A DNA stretch of 64,000 nt from Anaerolineales bacterium (GTDB taxonomy: Bacteria > Chloroflexota > Anaerolineae > Anaerolineales > UBA11858): assembly GCA_024763275.1 (NCBI GenBank), contig JANTFT010000001.1, positions 63,457 through 127,456 of the forward strand, given 5' to 3'. The notes under the pieces are model-generated. The model saw only the letters and a list, made by a program, of their open reading frames with translations. It had not been told where the DNA came from and ran no database searches. The position numbers and the translations under genes are program-made. The stretch's first letter is position 1. The number at the start of each line of letters is the position of its first letter. Shown here piece after piece: positions 5,670-21,801 of this stretch.

Positions 5670-6461
5670 TCATAATCCCAAGCTTTTCTCCAGCATGGAC
5701 GCCGCAGCCTGGTATACGGGGGAATCGTCTCCCAGCTCCAGCAGAGGCCTCCCGTCAAAGTCGAATTCCATCACGTTATCATCAGCGGGAATGGGCCCCA
5801 GGAAGGGAACTTCCAGTTTATCAATTCGTTCCTGGAGGGGTGGGGGTATCTCCCCGGGCACCCGGTTGAGGATGAAATATGTATTCTTGACTTTGATTTG
5901 CAGCTCATCCTTGAGTTCAACGATATTGGCGGCCGCGGCCAGCCCCCGCTGGGTAGGGCCGCTGATGATGAACAGATGGTCGACGTCCTCGGTGGTCCGC
6001 CGGCTGAGATGTTCCATGCCGGCTTCATTGTCCATCACCACGTAAGGATAACTGTGGCTCAACTTATCCAGGATTTCCCTCAGGTTGTGGTTTACCGCGC
6101 AGTAGCAGCCGGGTCCTTCCGATCGGCCCATTGCGATCAGATCGAAATCATCGCTTTCGATCAGCGAGGAATGGATCTCGTAGTCCAGGTAGTCATGTTT
6201 CGACATCCCACCGCCAATGCTGCCTCTGGCTGCCCCGGTGACGTTCTGGGCACTCTGTACCTGCTCGAGCATACCCTCCCGGATGCCTCCGATTGTGTAG
6301 TCTAGGTCAACACCCAGGACCATGTTCAAGTTCGCGCTGGGATCGGCATCGATGGCCAGAATGGGCCCTTTGCCCTTGTTGATCAGATATTTGATAATCA
6401 TGGCAGAAAAGGTGGTTTTTCCGGTTCCGCCCTTTCCTGCCACAGCGATAGTGGTGGTCAT
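5670..6461 (-). CDS. cooC: CooC/AcsF-type nickel-insertion ATPase (MinD/ParA fold)
   Basis: Deviant Walker A AVAGKGGTGKTT and a CxC metal motif GPGCYCAVN. Confidence 0.75.
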   Translation of the reverse strand: MTTTIAVAGKGGTGKTTFSAMIIKYLINKGKGPILAIDADPSANLNMVLGVDLDYTIGGIREGMLEQVQSAQNVTGAARGSIGGGMSKHDYLDYEIHSSLIESDDFDLIAMGRSEGPGCYCAVNHNLREILDKLSHSYPYVVMDNEAGMEHLSRRTTEDVDHLFIISGPTQRGLAAAANIVELKDELQIKVKNTYFILNRVPGEIPPPLQERIDKLEVPFLGPIPADDNVMEFDFDGRPLLELGDDSPVYQAAASMLEKSLGL

Positions 6462-6468
6462 AGATAAG

Positions 6469-7263
6469 CTACTCCTGTATAAATTCTTTCGGGTAAGGCT
6501 CCAGTAATTTTGCGGCGATCATCTCTGCGGATCCCTTTAGGGCGGGTACGTGGTCATAAACTGCCACGCCAATCCGGTCAGCATCCAGCACCCCCAGATC
6601 CATGGGCAGGGTTCCCAGCAGGGGAAGGCCGGGAGAGTTCGCTTGAAGGAACTCGATCTCTTCTTCTGTGCGGATCTTGTTGCCCACCAGCCAGAGGCGA
6701 TTCAATCCGATATCTTTGGAAAGGCTCTTGATCTGGGCCGCGGTTCCCAGGCTGCGCTGAGTGGGCTCGACCACGACGATCATTGCATCCACAAAGTCAA
6801 CCGTCGCCCGCCCCAGGTGTTCAACTCCGGCATACATGTCAATGATCAGCACTTCGTCATCGCGGAACAGCAGGTGAGTGAAGAGGGTCTTTAACATAGC
6901 GCTTTCCGGGCAGATGCAGCCTGACCCTCCTAGGTCTACGCTGCCCATTTCCAACAGGCGGACATCCCGGTATTTGACGCTGAAACGATCCGGTATGTCG
7001 TCAACCCGCGGGTTGATGGTGAAAAAACCACCCGTAGTTCCCGGTTTGGCACCCGTGCGCTCCTCGATCAGCTGGTCCATTTCTGCGATCGGGCTCAACT
7101 TTTCCCGCAGCTCCGCGGGCAGACCGAGAGCCCCGGCCAGGCAGGGTGAAGGATCCGCGTCAACAGCCAGAACATCCTTGCCCTGGTCAGCAAAGTACTG
7201 GGCCAGGAGAGCTGAGAGGGTGGTTTTGCCGACGCCCCCCTTTCCGCTGATAGCTAGTTTCAT
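6469..7263 (-). CDS. cooC: CooC-type CO dehydrogenase maturation (Ni-insertion) ATPase
   Basis: MKLAISGKGGVGKTT Walker A and a GSGCICPES CxC motif. Collinear by eye with Carboxydothermus CooC1 as I remember it. AAGGAG SD before ATG 7263. Confidence 0.8.
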   Translation of the reverse strand: MKLAISGKGGVGKTTLSALLAQYFADQGKDVLAVDADPSPCLAGALGLPAELREKLSPIAEMDQLIEERTGAKPGTTGGFFTINPRVDDIPDRFSVKYRDVRLLEMGSVDLGGSGCICPESAMLKTLFTHLLFRDDEVLIIDMYAGVEHLGRATVDFVDAMIVVVEPTQRSLGTAAQIKSLSKDIGLNRLWLVGNKIRTEEEIEFLQANSPGLPLLGTLPMDLGVLDADRIGVAVYDHVPALKGSAEMIAAKLLEPYPKEFIQE

Positions 7264-7289
7264 GTCTTGCTCCTTATCATAAACGTGAT

Positions 7290-7925
7290 TCAAACAGCTT
7301 CAGTCAATTTCCCCGTGAGCATGCTCGCCAGAATGGCAGAGCCCTCTGTGGGTAAGTAGTTATCGATGTTGTCTTCAAAGAGGATTTTATAGGAGGGAGG
7401 AAAATCCTCATCCCCTTCCCAGAGCACCACCAGCAGCGCCAATTTGGGGAATATCTGGTGCCGGTAGGCGCTGTCGCCAAAGCTGGTTTTTTCACCCCCG
7501 AGCTGCTGGTTGGCTTGATGGAAAGCCTGATAGTCTTCCCCGAAGACCCTGAACAGCACCTTGGATGTGTAGCCCTGAAAAGCAGCGTTGTAAAATTGTC
7601 CTTCTTCCAGTTCGGAAAAAGAGATCCATTTTGCCGCCAGGGGACAACTCCTGGGGGTGGAGAAATAATACAGGATCATGGCCTGGTGCACAGAAGGAAG
7701 AACCTGCTGGGTCTCTCGGTCCCTGGCGATATAATCCTGGCAGGAGAGTTCGACCGGCTTGTTCCAGTACTGAAAGGTGAAGGACGCGCTCTCCCCGGCC
7801 CCTTCCAGGGCGGCCCCTGTGAACTCTGCCAACCGCCCCGGTTCGGCTTTCAGCAGAGCGGCCTGAAGTTCATCAACCCGGCGTTCCAGAGGTTTCTGGT
7901 CCTTGTCGATTGTAAACTCACTCAT
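7290..7925 (-). CDS. conserved hypothetical protein, operon partner of the two CooC ATPases (possibly DUF3786-like)
   Basis: ORF 7290..8012, with ATG 7925 preferred (MSEFTIDK). Stop is 27 nt upstream of the cooC start. The family assignment is memory-based and weak. Confidence 0.5.
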   Translation of the reverse strand: MSEFTIDKDQKPLERRVDELQAALLKAEPGRLAEFTGAALEGAGESASFTFQYWNKPVELSCQDYIARDRETQQVLPSVHQAMILYYFSTPRSCPLAAKWISFSELEEGQFYNAAFQGYTSKVLFRVFGEDYQAFHQANQQLGGEKTSFGDSAYRHQIFPKLALLVVLWEGDEDFPPSYKILFEDNIDNYLPTEGSAILASMLTGKLTEAV

Positions 7926-8057
7926 AGCTAATTTCCCTGTCTGGCGTGGTTCCGCCCGGTAAAGACCTATAATACCATGCTGAACATTGAAGTTGGTTTT
8001 GTCACACAGCATCAGATATATTTCTTATCTTTTTGAATTGCTCCGGAAAATTTGCTC

Positions 8058-8086
8058 TTGACCGCCCCGGTCAGGGATGTTACACT
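8058..8086 (+). promoter_or_regulatory. sigma70-type promoter TTGACC-17 nt-TACACT
   Basis: Hexamers at 8058-8063 and 8081-8086 with exactly 17-nt spacing. The -35 overlaps the palindrome TGACCG-ccc-CGGTCA. Confidence 0.6.
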
Positions 8087-8120
8087 ACCGACTGTTCGGT
8101 AATATTAGAAAGGCGGAAGA

Positions 8121-8195
8121 ATGAACATGCTCAATGCTGTAAAAGCTGTATCCGGCGGATACGCAAATCTGTCTGGGAGGGTTCCCTGCGCTTGA
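8121..8195 (+). CDS. 24-codon small ORF (candidate leader peptide) MNMLNAVKAVSGGYANLSGRVPCA
   Basis: ATG 8121 is preceded by the purine-rich AAAGGCGGAAGA. Stop TGA at 8193-8195. The last codons overlap one strand of a putative antiterminator. Confidence 0.3.
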   Translation: MNMLNAVKAVSGGYANLSGRVPCA

Positions 8196-8222
8196 GCTTG
8201 TTAATATCCTAACACCTCTAAA

Positions 8223-8256
8223 GCTCCGGGAACATCAGAACCCGGGGCTTTTTTCT
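8223..8256 (+). terminator. intrinsic terminator T1
   Basis: Stem gctccggg (8223-8230) pairs with cccggggc (8241-8248): 8 bp including one G.U. 10-nt loop, followed by TTTTTTCTT. Confidence 0.65.
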
Positions 8257-8265
8257 TAATCGGAT

Positions 8266-8297
8266 CAGGCCGCGGGTTGCCCGCGGCCTGTTTTGTT
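8266..8297 (+). terminator. intrinsic terminator T2
   Basis: Perfect 11-bp stem caggccgcggg / cccgcggcctg with a 3-nt loop, followed by TTTTGTT. Confidence 0.75.
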
Positions 8298-8338
8298 AAA
8301 ACAGGCAGTCAACCGAGGGTTATGCAAGGAAAACTGCA

Positions 8339-9601
8339 ATGTTGTTCAGTAATTCGCTTGAGAAAATCAACTCAATATACCGGGAATATCCCCGGCAGTT
8401 CTGGGTGATTATAGGCGCTAATTTCATCGATCATGTGGGAGGGGCTTTGATCTTCCCCTTCTTTGCCCTGTATATCACTCAAAAATTCTCTGTGGGCATG
8501 ACGGAAGTGGGGCTGCTCTTTGCCCTGTTTTCGTTTACCGATATGCTCGGGAATATGGTGGGCGGCGCGCTGACTGATTTTCTAGGAAGAAAGACCATGA
8601 TTATCCTGGGATTGATCATCAGTGCCCTGACCAGCCTGGGGATGGGACTGGTCCAGCAGCTGGAATGGTTCTACGTAATGGGCGCGGTTTCTGGCCTGTT
8701 TGCCACGGCAGCGGGGCCGGCCCATGAGGCCATGCTGATCGATATCCTGCCCGAGAGCAAGAGGTCGGAAGGCTTTGGCGTGATGCGGGTGGCCATGAAT
8801 CTTTCGGTGGCGATTGGACCGGCTGTCGGCGGTTTCATCGCTTCCTACTCCTATCTGGTGCTGTTCATAGCTGATACCATCACCAGCCTGATCACAGCTC
8901 TGATTGTCTACCTGGTGGTAGAGGAGAGCATGCCGGAAGAGAGGGGTGCACACGCTTCCCGGAAGGGTTTCAAGGAGACTTTCGCGGGCTACGGGGCGGT
9001 GTTGAAAGACCGCAAGTTCATGCTCTTTGTGATCGTCTCCACGATCGCGACGCTGGTGTACTCCCAGATGTACAGCACTCTGTCGGTTTTCTTGCGGGAT
9101 ATCCACGGAGTTCCGGAATCCGGCTACGGCTGGCTGATGACTCTGAACGCCGCCATGGTGGTCCTGTTCCAGTTCATGATCACCCACAGGATTTCCGATA
9201 AGCCGCCCATGCTGATCCTGGCTTTGGGATCGCTGTTCTACGTGTTCGGGTTTGGCATGTATGGCTTTGTGGACCTCTACATCCTGTTCATGCTGGCTAT
9301 GGCAATCATCACTGTTGGAGAGATGGTCATCATCCCGGTGGCCCGGGCTTATGTCGGCCAGGCTGCTCCGGAGGATATGCGGGGGCGTTATTCCGGGATG
9401 ATGGGTTTCTCCTGGATGATACCCTGGATGATCGGTCCGCTGCTGGCAGGCCTGATCATGGATTACGGCAATCCCAACTGGGTCTGGTACGGCAGCGCTA
9501 TTCTGGCTTTGATCGCGGCCGCTGGCTTCCTGTGGCTGCGCAAGGACCATGAGGAGATTCCCGCTACCTCCCAGCCGGAACCTGGTTTGGAAACAGGTTA
9601 G
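8339..9601 (+). CDS. MFS transporter, drug/H+ antiporter-like
   Basis: About 12 predicted TM segments. MFS motif A GALTDFLGRKTMIILG. Antiporter motif C-like AIGPAVGGFI in TM5. Confidence 0.85.
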   Translation: MLFSNSLEKINSIYREYPRQFWVIIGANFIDHVGGALIFPFFALYITQKFSVGMTEVGLLFALFSFTDMLGNMVGGALTDFLGRKTMIILGLIISALTSLGMGLVQQLEWFYVMGAVSGLFATAAGPAHEAMLIDILPESKRSEGFGVMRVAMNLSVAIGPAVGGFIASYSYLVLFIADTITSLITALIVYLVVEESMPEERGAHASRKGFKETFAGYGAVLKDRKFMLFVIVSTIATLVYSQMYSTLSVFLRDIHGVPESGYGWLMTLNAAMVVLFQFMITHRISDKPPMLILALGSLFYVFGFGMYGFVDLYILFMLAMAIITVGEMVIIPVARAYVGQAAPEDMRGRYSGMMGFSWMIPWMIGPLLAGLIMDYGNPNWVWYGSAILALIAAAGFLWLRKDHEEIPATSQPEPGLETG

Positions 9602-9613
9602 AATAAGGAAAAG

Positions 9614-10648
9614 ATGATGAAGAACAAACTACCTGAAGGATTCAATACCCGAATGGCTTCGATGGCGGATCTGCCTGCCATCCATCTCCTGGAACAGAAA
9701 TGGACGCTCCATTACCTGGGAGTAGAGGGGATGACCTTGGAGAGGCTGCGGAATGAATACGAACTGCCGGGATTTGATGTCTCAAGCAGCGTCCATCTTG
9801 TTGAAGATCCCGGCGGTCTGCTGGTTGGTGTGATTGAGGTCTGGGATGAAAGCGACCCTCCTGTGAGCCCTTATGTCTATTTCGCGGTTGATCCGGATCT
9901 TGAAAATCTCGGGCTGGAGAACTATCTGCTGGAATGGGGAGAAACCCGGGCCCGGCAGGCGCTGGCGCGGGTCGACCCGGAATTGCGGGTGGCCATACGT
10001 GTCCATATTAACCATGTTGTCGAATCCTCCCGGCGGGCTCTGCTGGCAGCGGGATTCCAGCAGATCCGCTACAGCTTCCGGATGCGGATCGAGATGGATC
10101 AGGCGCCGCCTGATCCGACCTGGCCGGAAGGTATCAGCCTGCAGCCCTATGATCCTGAAAGGCACGCCCGGGTTGTTTTTGAAACGGACGAAGAGGTCTT
10201 CCAGGACCATTTTGGTTTTGTTAAGGAAGACCCCGAGGAAGGGTTCGAGAGATTCCTCCACCATATGACCGGGGATGATTCTTACGATCCCAGTCTGTGG
10301 TTCCTGGCCTTCGACGGCCCTGAAATTGTGGGAATATGCCTGTGCCGCCGCTACGGGCCGGAAGATCGGGAGGCGGGTTACGTGTCCAGTCTGGGTGTAA
10401 AACGCGCCTGGAGGCGCCGGGGGCTGGCCCAGGCCCTGCTGCACCAGGCTTTTGGGGAATTCTACCGGCGCGGTAAATATAAAGTCGATCTGGGTGTTGA
10501 TGGGCAATCACTGACCGGCGCCACAGACCTTTATAAAAAAGTGGGCATGCGGGTGCTGCGGCAGTATGACCTGTACGAAAAGGTGCTGCGCCCTGGCGTG
10601 GATATCAGCGTCAACACCCTGGAATCGTCGGGTGAGATTGACAGCTAA
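9614..10648 (+). CDS. GNAT-family N-acetyltransferase (two-domain, mycothiol-synthase-like architecture)
   Basis: Acetyl-CoA motif A LGVKRAWRRRGLAQALL in the C-terminal half. At 344 aa it is consistent with tandem GNAT folds. Confidence 0.7.
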   Translation: MMKNKLPEGFNTRMASMADLPAIHLLEQKWTLHYLGVEGMTLERLRNEYELPGFDVSSSVHLVEDPGGLLVGVIEVWDESDPPVSPYVYFAVDPDLENLGLENYLLEWGETRARQALARVDPELRVAIRVHINHVVESSRRALLAAGFQQIRYSFRMRIEMDQAPPDPTWPEGISLQPYDPERHARVVFETDEEVFQDHFGFVKEDPEEGFERFLHHMTGDDSYDPSLWFLAFDGPEIVGICLCRRYGPEDREAGYVSSLGVKRAWRRRGLAQALLHQAFGEFYRRGKYKVDLGVDGQSLTGATDLYKKVGMRVLRQYDLYEKVLRPGVDISVNTLESSGEIDS

Positions 10649-10663
10649 TTAATAAGGAGATTT

Positions 10664-11296
10664 ATGATCACCACGGTAATTTTTGACATGGGCGGGGTGC
10701 TGGTCCGTACAGAAGACCGTCAACCCCGCCAACGCCTGGCTGACAAACTCAACCTGAGTTACCAGGAGCTGGAAGAGCTGGTTTATAGATCAGCCACGTC
10801 CAAGCAGGCCACGGTAGGGATGATCCCGGCAGAGACCCATAAGAAGGCGGTGCTGGAAAGTCTGGGTTGGCCTGCAGATTCAATTCAGGAGTTTAGCGCT
10901 GAGTTCTGGGGTGGTGATCGGGTGGACCGCCAGCTGGTCGATTTTATCCGCGGTTTGCGAGGGAGCTATACTACCGTCTTGTTAAGCAACGCCTGGGATG
11001 ATCTGCGGTCAGTGCTGGCAGAGAGATGGCAAATTGCCGATGCTTTTGATCATATTTTTATCTCATCTGAAATTGGCCTGGCTAAGCCGGATCCTAGAAT
11101 CTATCAGTGGGTAACAGCGGAGCTGTCTGCCGATCCGACTGAACTGGTTTTCGTGGATGATTTCATCGAAAATGTGCTGGCTGCCAGGGAGGCTGGCTGG
11201 AATGCGGTGCACTTCAGGTCCCGGGAGCAGGCCCTGGACGAGCTGGCGGAATATCTCGACAACGACCTGGGAAGCCTGCCCGGGGATTCCTATTAA
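10664..11296 (+). CDS. HAD-superfamily hydrolase (subfamily IA)
   Basis: Motif I VIFDMGGVLV, motif II LLSN, motif IV FVDD. Confidence 0.8.
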   Translation: MITTVIFDMGGVLVRTEDRQPRQRLADKLNLSYQELEELVYRSATSKQATVGMIPAETHKKAVLESLGWPADSIQEFSAEFWGGDRVDRQLVDFIRGLRGSYTTVLLSNAWDDLRSVLAERWQIADAFDHIFISSEIGLAKPDPRIYQWVTAELSADPTELVFVDDFIENVLAAREAGWNAVHFRSREQALDELAEYLDNDLGSLPGDSY

Positions 11297-11312
11297 GTAA
11301 GGCTGGATCGTT

Positions 11313-11882
11313 ATGTCCGGGAAACTGTTTTTTACACTCCAGTACTGGATCAAGAATCCTCCCTGGGATACCGGGATCACACCTCCGGAGCTGTACCGGT
11401 TCCTGCGCGAGAATCCCCCTGGAAGAGCGCTGGACCTCGGCTGCGGGACCGGTACCAATGTGATCACTCTGGCTAAATATGGTTGGCAGGCGAGTGGGGT
11501 GGATATCGTTCCCCGGGCCATCCGGATTGCCAGGAGGAAAGCCCGCCGGGAAGGGGTAGAGGACCTCACTGAATTTTCTGTGGGGGATGCCCTGGCGCCG
11601 GAAACTTTCCAGGGGGAATATGACCTGATCCTTGATATCGGCTGTTTTCACGTTTTTCCAGAATCGGCGGCTGAGATCTACGGGCGCAATCTGAGGGCTC
11701 ATTTGGCAGAAGGGGGGCGGTTTTTGCTGTATGTCCACCTCGATCGGGGGCCGGGACCCGGGCATGGGGCCTCGGAAGCCGGCCTGGAGAAGCTGGGGGA
11801 ATATCTACATTTGATCAGGCGAACGGACGGGGAAGAATCCTCCCGCCCTTCTGCCTGGCTGGAATTCGGGAAGCGGAAATAA
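11313..11882 (+). CDS. class I SAM-dependent methyltransferase
   Basis: SAM-binding motif ALDLGCGTGTN and a downstream acidic loop GVDI. Confidence 0.75.
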   Translation: MSGKLFFTLQYWIKNPPWDTGITPPELYRFLRENPPGRALDLGCGTGTNVITLAKYGWQASGVDIVPRAIRIARRKARREGVEDLTEFSVGDALAPETFQGEYDLILDIGCFHVFPESAAEIYGRNLRAHLAEGGRFLLYVHLDRGPGPGHGASEAGLEKLGEYLHLIRRTDGEESSRPSAWLEFGKRK

Positions 11883-21488: not shown

Positions 21489-21504
21489 CTTTTAATAAAA
21501 TAAG

Positions 21505-21575
<71 letters not shown>

Positions 21576-21649
21576 TTGATAAAAAGAAACTGATGGTTTC
21601 CGGCTGTTCTGTGTCAGCCTTCTGCCACCAGCCGAAAGAGGAAAACAAG

Positions 21650-21721
<72 letters not shown>

Positions 21722-21728
21722 TTGAAAG

Positions 21729-21801
21729 TGCCGAGAGCCAGACTCGAACTGGCGACACCTTGATTTTCAGTCAAGTGCTCTACCAACTGAGCTATCTCGG
21801 C
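21729..21801 (-). tRNA. tRNA-Phe (GAA)
   Basis: Acceptor GCCGAGA/TCTCGGC, D-loop AGTTGGTA, anticodon stem-loop CTTGA-CTGAAAA-TCAAG, T-loop TTCGAGT. 73 nt, no CCA. Confidence 0.9.

Follow-up and report, generated by a model that had tools for sequence, protein, structure and literature searches.

A predicted leader-ORF attenuator with two tandem terminators ahead of an MFS efflux operon in Anaerolineales

In a 64,000-nt stretch of DNA from an Anaerolineales bacterium (contig JANTFT010000001.1, positions 63,457 to 127,456; the whole stretch is called the window below), two intrinsic terminators, T1 and T2, lie between a promoter and the gene for a transporter of the major facilitator superfamily (MFS). 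How would RNA polymerase reach the transporter gene, and what would decide whether it does? The answer that we consider probable, from the comparison of relatives, is that the leader is a cis-acting, ribosome-dependent transcription attenuator, in which translation of a short leader open reading frame (ORF) gates an operon for MFS efflux, a GNAT acetyltransferase, a HAD phosphatase and a methyltransferase. The efficiency of termination, the kinetic order of folding and the inducer are parts of the model that we infer. A first-pass annotation of the window had made it its central claim that the position of a ribosome picks between terminator and antiterminator upstream of the MFS gene, and the comparative evidence given below supports that claim. 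Relatives of the locus are labelled with L-numbers (e.g., L018). The elements from which the question arises are the following.

8058 to 8086, + strand: promoter, with -35 TTGACC at 8058-8063, a 17-nt spacer and an extended -10, TG-T-TACACT, at 8078-8086 (sequence, consensus scan and conservation).
8112 to 8119, + strand: Shine-Dalgarno (SD) region of the leader ORF, GGCGGAAG here and GAGGA in most relatives (a conserved purine tract).
8121 to 8195, + strand: leader ORF, 24 codons plus TGA at 8193-8195, MNMLNAVKAVSGGYANLSGRVPCA (frame, SD, ATG and stop conserved).
8221 to 8254, + strand: intrinsic terminator T1, a 10-bp stem, a 10-nt loop and U6 (95.1% paired in 37 leaders).
8266 to 8297, + strand: intrinsic terminator T2, an 11-bp stem, a 3-nt loop and UUUUGUU (found by scan; 89.9% paired in 37 leaders).
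8339 to 11882, + strand: the operon, comprising MFS (8339-9601), two-domain GNAT (9614-10648), HAD phosphatase (10664-11296) and S-adenosylmethionine-dependent methyltransferase (11313-11882) genes (Pfam and NCBIfam).

The TG at 8078-8079, upstream of TACACT at 8081-8086, makes the promoter an extended -10 promoter, and transcription would start near 8093. Both hexamers and the TG were almost invariant in the aligned relatives, where the spacer was constant in length and variable in sequence. The aligned relatives also kept the SD, the ATG, the ORF, T1, T2 and a CAGGC after T2, and GAGGA was retained 5-8 nt 5' of the ATG in both alignments, A1 and A2. T1 has a core of GCTCCGGG (8223-8230) paired with CCCGGGGC (8241-8248), and T6 comes next at 8249-8254; the full stem of 10 bp spans 8221-8250, its stability is -16.4 kcal/mol and its U-tract is conserved. 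T2 is a perfect 11-bp stem (8266-8276 with 8280-8290) of -23.6 kcal/mol. No promoter-like site was found between 8087 and 8338 in a consensus scan, and the 25-35 nt ahead of the MFS SD were unconserved among the aligned relatives. The first-pass annotation had listed the TTGACC-17-TACACT promoter, the SD-like tract with its ATG at 8121 and stop at 8193-8195, and the stems and tails of both terminators, and had seen no promoter between T2 and the MFS ATG at 8339; all of these readings were recovered.

When bare motifs were matched over 3 kb, neither promoter-like sites (2 against 1.6 expected) nor terminator-like sites (4 against 3.2 expected) exceeded chance. Folding of 8090-8300, a check proposed with the first annotation, gave a z-score of -4.1, and none of 200 shuffled sequences was equally stable. 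The promoter and the terminators stand above chance because of this fold z-score and the conservation of every element in relatives. At gathering thresholds, no Rfam family matched anywhere in the window except three tRNAs, which are the genes for Cys-GCA, Gly-GCC and Phe-GAA at 21504-21801 on the - strand. The best sub-threshold Rfam match was SorX (32.5 bits; gathering threshold 46.6), which aligned only to the two terminator hairpins.

Two sets of pairings can be drawn on this leader, one that terminates (OFF) and one that reads through (ON). Both were tested on the 37-sequence alignment A2, with partners slid by 1-3 columns and 500 shuffles as controls. The segments concerned are these.

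8124 to 8134, + strand: segment 1, AACAUGCUCAA, codons 2-5, the 5' strand of the anti-antiterminator H1 (pairs with 8192-8202).
8153 to 8166, + strand: hairpin H1a within the ORF, consensus CUGCG-NNNN-CGCAG (95.7% paired).
8174 to 8187, + strand: hairpin H1b within the ORF, (U)GGGA-GGNU-UCCC(A) (97.8% paired).
8181 to 8202, + strand: switch strand, the last ORF codons, the stop and 7 nt beyond (3' strand of H1/H1b or 5' strand of the antiterminator AT1).
8241 to 8276, + strand: antiterminator AT2, the T1 3' arm and first Us (8241-8250) with the T2 5' arm (8267-8276) (extended pairing 94.8-96.4%).
8286 to 8306, + strand: hairpin 6:7, the T2 3' arm GCCUG (8286-8290) with CAGGC (8302-8306) (96.8% paired).

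In the OFF set (H1, H1a, H1b, T1 and T2), 92.8% of the alignment cells were paired, compared with 30-49% in the slid controls. The covariation score was 0.083 and 21 cells were altered on both sides of a pair; neither value was reached in any of the 500 shuffles. RNAalifold independently found the H1 core, H1a, H1b, T1 and T2. H1 itself (8124-8134 with 8192-8202) was paired in 89.9% of cells, against 17-41% for its slid controls, and one of its positions was A-U in 13 leaders, U-A in 9 and a mismatch in the other 15. The pair that closes the H1a loop varied among G-C, G-U and A-U, and the loop was free to vary. The closing pair of H1b, which joins the synonymous third position of Ser18 to the first base of codon 23, was U-A in 22 leaders and A-U in 9, and the hairpin of L013 reads AGGA/UCCU.

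The ON set (AT1, AT2 and hairpin 6:7) was paired in 92.4% of cells, compared with 22-50% in the slid controls; six pairs were altered on both sides, a number that none of the 500 shuffles reached. AT1 consists of 8181-8186 with 8228-8233 and 8194-8199 with 8221-8226. These pairings were 85-97% conserved, with two compensatory changes (L031 and L003), and the antiterminator fold of 8179-8236 had an energy of -19.2 kcal/mol. An alternative register of AT1, 8190-8196 (GCUUGAG) with 8216-8224 (CUUAAGC just 5' of T1), was paired in 90.1% of cells; this register and GAGCUU:AAGCUC are both well conserved, and conservation does not choose between them. The core of AT2 (8241-8248 with 8269-8276) is complementary at 7 of 8 positions in the window, and the variable base of the T2 5' arm was paired within AT2 in 23 of the 37 leaders and within T2 in only 5. 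Hairpin 6:7, whose CAGGC lies just past the U-tract, had an energy of -11.3 kcal/mol in the window; two of its pairs were changed on both sides, six U-G wobbles occurred and L012 covaried as CCCG/CGGG. The wobbles argue that this pairing acts at the RNA level. The role of hairpin 6:7 is puzzling because it is transcribed after the decision point at T2; locking of the ON fold, mRNA stability and processing are candidates.

The alternative pairings in the earlier list (the two helices of AT1 and the core of AT2) all exist and are conserved in the 37 distinct leaders. That list was incomplete, since it had missed H1, H1a, H1b and the helix that CAGGC forms with the T2 3' arm. The comparison with leaders of orthologous MFS genes, which the same annotation had called for, showed that the ORF, the SD, the terminators and the alternative pairings were conserved across the 37.

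The pairings suggest the following mechanism. Transcription would start from the extended -10 promoter near 8093, and the nascent leader would have two mutually exclusive folds. In the OFF fold, segment 1 would pair with segment 2, the stop region, enclosing H1a and H1b; the T1 5' arm would thereby be free, T1 would form and transcription would end at about 8254. For polymerase that leaked past T1, the T1 3' arm would be locked in its stem and T2 would form as a second stop. In the ON fold, the last ORF codons and the stop region would pair with the 5' arm and loop of T1 (AT1), the freed T1 3' arm would capture the T2 5' arm (AT2), the freed T2 3' arm would pair with CAGGC, and both terminators would be bypassed. 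A ribosome at the start codon or within about the first 17 codons is predicted to cover segment 1 or to separate it from its partner, allowing AT1 and read-through. A ribosome that reached the stop codon while T1 was being transcribed would cover the switch strand and favour termination. With no ribosome, the anti-antiterminator, which is transcribed earlier, would form first and lead to termination, on kinetic grounds. The operon would then be induced when translation initiation or early elongation slows.

The leader ORF had the properties expected of a track for the ribosome. Its frame was free of stops in all 37 leaders, whereas the two other frames had 57 and 18. The sole indel was an in-frame deletion of 3 nt (one codon) in L078. 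The stop was TGA everywhere except in L031, where it was TAA and the partner in segment 3 changed from C to U, compensating for it. L013 lacked the first ATG and kept an in-frame ATG at codon 3. The lack of stops, the codon-sized indel and the compensated stop change argue that the frame is kept open for ribosomes, and the ORF is probably translated. The mean entropy of paired nucleotides was about 0.3 in all three codon positions, and that of unpaired nucleotides was 0.7-1.05; unpaired codons encoded up to 8 different residues across the leaders. Variation thus tracks RNA pairing and not codon position, making it unlikely that the peptide functions as a protein or arrests the ribosome through its specific sequence. 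The ORF seems to provide a path for ribosomes rather than a functional peptide. A functional small protein was rejected on the ground that the peptide varies freely at unpaired codons.

The structural logic set out above is identical to that of amino-acid attenuators, and the same architecture might sense the shortage of one charged tRNA (as in trp, his or leu) or a metabolite-dependent arrest of the nascent peptide (as in TnaC or SpeFL). Single conserved codons (Cys12 TGC, Gly19, Arg20 AGG and Pro22) would suit such sensing, and the MshD-like GNAT would allow the operon to be metabolic and not one of resistance. However, identical codons did not occur in a run, and the conserved codons coincided with paired RNA positions. 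At codons 6-11 and 13-14, the sites at which stalling would have to happen to be productive, relatives had 5-8 different residues, and a ribosome stalled on the conserved C-terminal SGR[FV]P codons would block the antiterminator strand, so that termination and not induction would follow. AGG, at 13% of the Arg codons in the window, is not especially rare, and a rare-codon pause at Arg20 was not compelling on the same count. We regard sensing of one tRNA or one arrest peptide as unlikely. An attenuator of amino-acid biosynthesis was rejected as well: no codon class was repeated, and the genes downstream are those of an MFS transporter, a GNAT, a HAD phosphatase and a methyltransferase.

The GG in the H1b loop (8179-8180, within the AGG of codon 20) was almost invariant although it is unpaired in both proposed folds. 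Together with the adjacent GGGA it makes an SD-like GGGAGG within the ORF. An internal SD-like pause and a tertiary contact are possibilities.

The effect of a ribosome on the leader was examined by folding with the RNA under the ribosome masked. Equilibrium folding of the complete leader was uninformative, and mask folding was therefore moved to nascent end points. When the RNA of the window ended before the T1 3' arm and carried no ribosome, H1 formed with a probability of 0.88 and AT1 was absent. With the P-site at codons 1-8, AT1 formed with a probability of about 1.0, a value that held up to about codon 17 provided that RNA upstream of the ribosome is kept from pairing past it. Once the P-site was at codon 20 or beyond, the T1 5' arm was free. 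The masked folds confirm that AT1 and T1 exclude each other. Segment 1 falls within the stretch that a ribosome on the start codon would protect, and the switch strand (8181-8202) lies under a ribosome that has come to the stop codon. Across the 37 leaders, the mean sequestration of the T1 5' arm was 0.65 with the ribosome at codons 3-16 and 0.21 at codons 22-24. In RNA that ended short of the T2 3' arm, stalling at codon 8 gave probabilities across the leaders of 0.16 for T1 and 0.79 for AT2, compared with 0.63 and 0.33 for a ribosome at the stop. AT1 with AT2 was the minimum free energy structure of the nascent RNA of the window at end point 8279 (-43.0 kcal/mol, stall at codon 8); for the T1 fold, with the RNA ending earlier, at 8262, the energy was -30.9 kcal/mol.

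Several results weigh against a ribosome-dependent attenuator. In the complete leader, T1 formed at equilibrium under any mask; T1 always wins at equilibrium, and therefore the switch decision must be kinetic. Without a ribosome, most orthologues favoured AT1 at equilibrium (mean sequestration 0.60). Since unmasked nascent RNA favours AT1, the claim that termination would occur without translation depends entirely on the order of folding. The stalled-state calculation still yielded T1 in 7 of the 37 leaders. The support for AT1 and AT2 was mostly conserved complementarity and not covariation, and T1 resembles T2, so that the complementarity in AT2 could, at least in part, have arisen simply through duplication. 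Because the 37 sequences share ancestry and also served to derive the structures, the shuffle controls overstate significance. Finally, across the 37 leaders the ORF had neither a conserved arrest motif nor a run of regulatory codons that would point to a signal.

The distribution of the leader bears on whether it belongs to the operon at all. The whole module (promoter, SD and ORF, T1, T2 and operon) was kept in about 45 distinct Anaerolineales genome or metagenome sequences. A genome scan seeded with the MFS protein gave 47 loci, all from metagenome-assembled genomes of Anaerolineales or other Chloroflexota bar a few distant ones, and blastn recognised the leader in about 21 loci, in which the MFS was at least 67% identical. 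Metagenome contigs were scanned with a degenerate DNA pattern taken from the end of the ORF, without use of the MFS; this returned 35 loci, of which 29 were true leaders, all directly 5' of the same MFS (MLFSNS...), and 6 were chance matches. A covariance model of the ORF-T1 part found one copy in the 64-kb window and, among the other loci, only L018 (35 bits) and, marginally, L020. The order MFS-GNAT-HAD-methyltransferase and its short spacers were kept in all leader-bearing loci, and the upstream neighbour and its distance varied. The conserved linkage, the gene order and the single copy show that the leader is a cis element of the MFS operon.

These results also bear on the alternative that the first-pass annotation had offered, a stand-alone small gene. 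The promoter, the ORF and the double terminator do form a complete unit, which could encode a 24-residue protein or a small RNA of about 160-205 nt, the MFS operon being transcribed independently. Leader RNA ending at the terminators would build up and could have a trans action, as described for rnTrpL and peTrpL (PMC7968998, PMC7298713). However, the unit was never found apart from the MFS gene in the 29 pattern-selected metagenome leaders and is present once in the window, the 41-nt spacer before the MFS gene has no conserved promoter, and the peptide is unconserved where the RNA is unpaired. Further, a stand-alone gene would have no use for conserved, mutually exclusive pairings that overlap both terminators. 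These pairings and the strict linkage to the MFS gene disfavour the alternative, which we take to be very unlikely. A trans role of the terminated leader RNA could still accompany cis control by attenuation.

Diverged leaders kept the layout with other sequences. L018, whose MFS is 67% identical to that of the window, has a 22-codon ORF of unrelated sequence in the same promoter-ORF-T1-T2 arrangement; its codons 2-5, CAGCAAUC, pair perfectly with the stop region, GAUUGCUG, in an 8-bp helix that is unlike H1 of the window in sequence. L019-L021 (MFS 58-59% identical) have ORFs of 26-29 codons followed by two terminators. In these three, the SD region, GGAGACGCAC, itself serves as the 5' strand of the anti-antiterminator and pairs with AGUGCGUC near the end of the ORF; as in L018, the antiterminator strand (here CUUUAGA with UCUAAAG, next to T1) contains the stop codon. 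On sequence comparison, these appear to be three unrelated solutions of one layout, in which a ribosome at the start would sit on one of the switching strands and a ribosome at the stop on the other. Below about 58% identity, MFS homologues (e.g., Levilinea, L028, L033 and L034) had a plain promoter or an upstream gene in place of the leader, which was missing from homologues of about 53% identity or less.

The same comparison weighs on an RNA switch that would respond to a ligand or a protein, with the three-way junction of H1, H1a and H1b as the sensor and the ORF incidental or serving to clear structure. Such a switch would account for nucleotide conservation in the ORF that follows pairing (entropy of about 0.3 at paired sites), for the nearly invariant unpaired GG of the H1b loop and for the fold z-score. 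By contrast, the SD/ATG spacing, the open frame in 37 of 37 leaders, the whole-codon indel and the compensated stop point to translation, and L018-L021 do not have the same junction sequences and yet place the SD or ORF start and the stop on the switching strands. The lack of any Rfam match also speaks against a switch of this kind, and we consider it very unlikely.

Three features remain unexplained by the pairings: the GG of the H1b loop (Arg20 AGG), a G-[RD]-hydrophobic-P tail common to the diverged leaders, and the conserved hairpin 6:7 after T2. They may be read as traces of a metabolite- or drug-specific arrest peptide, or of an aptamer, within the translated ORF; the leader would then be a hybrid sensor that recognises specifically the substrate of this Anaerolineae operon, and the interlocked terminators a two-step proofreading cascade. 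We regard this as doubtful, and an attenuator that reads the position of the ribosome remains the preferred reading.

Some relatives had peculiarities of their own. L018 carries an insertion of about 183 nt between T2 and the MFS start (L018:329-511) that resembles a miniature inverted-repeat transposable element; its ends are 39-nt imperfect inverted repeats, 79% complementary (TTAACTTGACAATGTTAG... / ...CATTGTCAAATTAA), and it holds TTGACA-like hexamers that might supply a leader-independent promoter. In L047 (positions 9-128), two terminator-like hairpins lie upstream of a Desulfosporosinus MFS that is 25% identical to that of the window; the leader-model score was 17.4 bits (E about 0.5), probably reflecting chance or convergent design. 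Two distant relatives (L024:1788-4143 and L043:1859-4242) had two tandem MFS paralogues and no leader. In L005, L017, L038 and L079, tblastn matches to the MFS or GNAT were split across frames, which suggests frameshifts from assembly errors or pseudogenisation.

What the operon exports or modifies bears on the inducer. The MFS protein matched PF07690 at 1.8e-68. The drug/H+ antiporter motifs that had been noted before were seen in its translation, with motif A (consensus GxLxDrxGrkxxl) as GALTDFLGRKTM and the antiporter motif C (consensus GxxxGPxxGG) as AIGPAVGGF, and the protein meets the description of a drug:H+ antiporter with 12 transmembrane segments (DHA1-like). Among proteins of solved structure, the multidrug pumps NorA (E = 1.3e-14) and LmrP are closest to it. 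The NCBIfam efflux models all scored far below their cutoffs, so that no subfamily or substrate could be assigned. The GNAT is similar to MshD-like acetyltransferases with two domains. Given a NorA-like pump followed by an acetyltransferase and a methyltransferase, the most economical guess at the inducer is a translation inhibitor; compounds that inhibit translation and are countered by the pump or the enzymes are, in our inference, the most likely inducers.

The MFS SD (8326-8331) lies 29 nt beyond the end of T2 at 8297, and weak local pairing of 8305-8309 with 8333-8337 was seen in the window. Translational attenuation of the MFS SD, as in erm or cat, was rejected because there was no conserved pairing and the spacer was unconserved.

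Upstream of the promoter, at 5670-8012 on the - strand, are divergent genes that encode a DUF3786 protein and a pair of CooC/CbiA-type P-loop ATPases, as is typical of loci for the maturation of CO dehydrogenase/acetyl-CoA synthase. Many, though not all, of the loci with the leader had this trio upstream, 0.4 to over 5 kb away. T1 and T2 do not serve the DUF3786 gene, since it is divergent.

Anaerolineales (Chloroflexota) are almost entirely uncultured, and the leader offers a concrete and testable model of how an operon for efflux and modification may be regulated in this group; the model specifies the promoter, the sensor ORF, two points of termination and alternative pairings at three levels. 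If translation inhibitors are the inducers, the operon would be an inducible module of intrinsic resistance that is widespread in Chloroflexota of sediment and sludge, and the leader would provide a handle for finding it. The interlocked tandem terminators would be a natural example of how the leak of an attenuator can be cut without lowering the induced level.

No leader-ORF attenuator in Anaerolineae was described in the literature searched. The three-structure logic proposed here has been demonstrated experimentally for bmrB-bmrCD (PMC4191407), vmlR (PMC9226507) and mef(E)L (PMC4335068). Attenuators of the trp type share the pairing logic 1:2 / 2:3 / 3:4, the masking of segment 2 by a ribosome at the stop and a predicted superattenuation without translation; unlike them, the present leader has no tandem regulatory codons, precedes non-biosynthetic genes and adds a second terminator stage. 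Two adjacent Rho-independent terminators are found in erm(K) (cited in PMC4335068). As in the present leader, a leader peptide and two tandem intrinsic terminators precede a resistance gene there. In erm(K), the regulated gene is an rRNA methylase, the response is macrolide-specific and transcription attenuation is combined with translational attenuation.

The mef(E)L leader of mef(E)/mel (PMC4335068) is likewise a leader peptide-dependent transcription attenuator ahead of an MFS pump, with a 17-bp-spaced promoter and an intrinsic terminator followed directly by the pump gene. However, it has 8 codons with the macrolide arrest motif MTASMRLR, a leader of 327 nt and one terminator, whereas no recognisable arrest motif is seen here. 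The vmlR leader of B. subtilis responds to antibiotics that stall initiation, which prevents the anti-antiterminator and allows the antiterminator (PMC9226507). Its anti-antiterminator 5' strand lies under a start-stalled ribosome, as does segment 1 here and the SD in L019-L021. It differs in its upstream ORF of 3 codons (MIN), its single terminator, NusG-dependent pausing, an SD-sequestering hairpin and the ABCF gene that it controls; here the MFS SD is not sequestered in a conserved way.

The bmrB leader of B. subtilis bmrCD (PMC4191407) also combines a leader ORF with an anti-antiterminator, an antiterminator and a terminator in the control of drug efflux. It has 53 codons with the terminator inside the ORF, compared with 24 codons and two serial terminators downstream here; the two leaders share no sequence similarity, the transporters are of the ATP-binding cassette type and the MFS, and the phyla differ. 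Like T1 here, the bmrB terminator is more stable than its antiterminator at equilibrium (PMC4191407). In bmrB, efficient translation blocks the weaker antiterminator and slowed translation permits it (PMC4191407), and the same logic would apply to the leader described here. The class of mechanism is a textbook one, and the finding extends known biology and overturns none of it.

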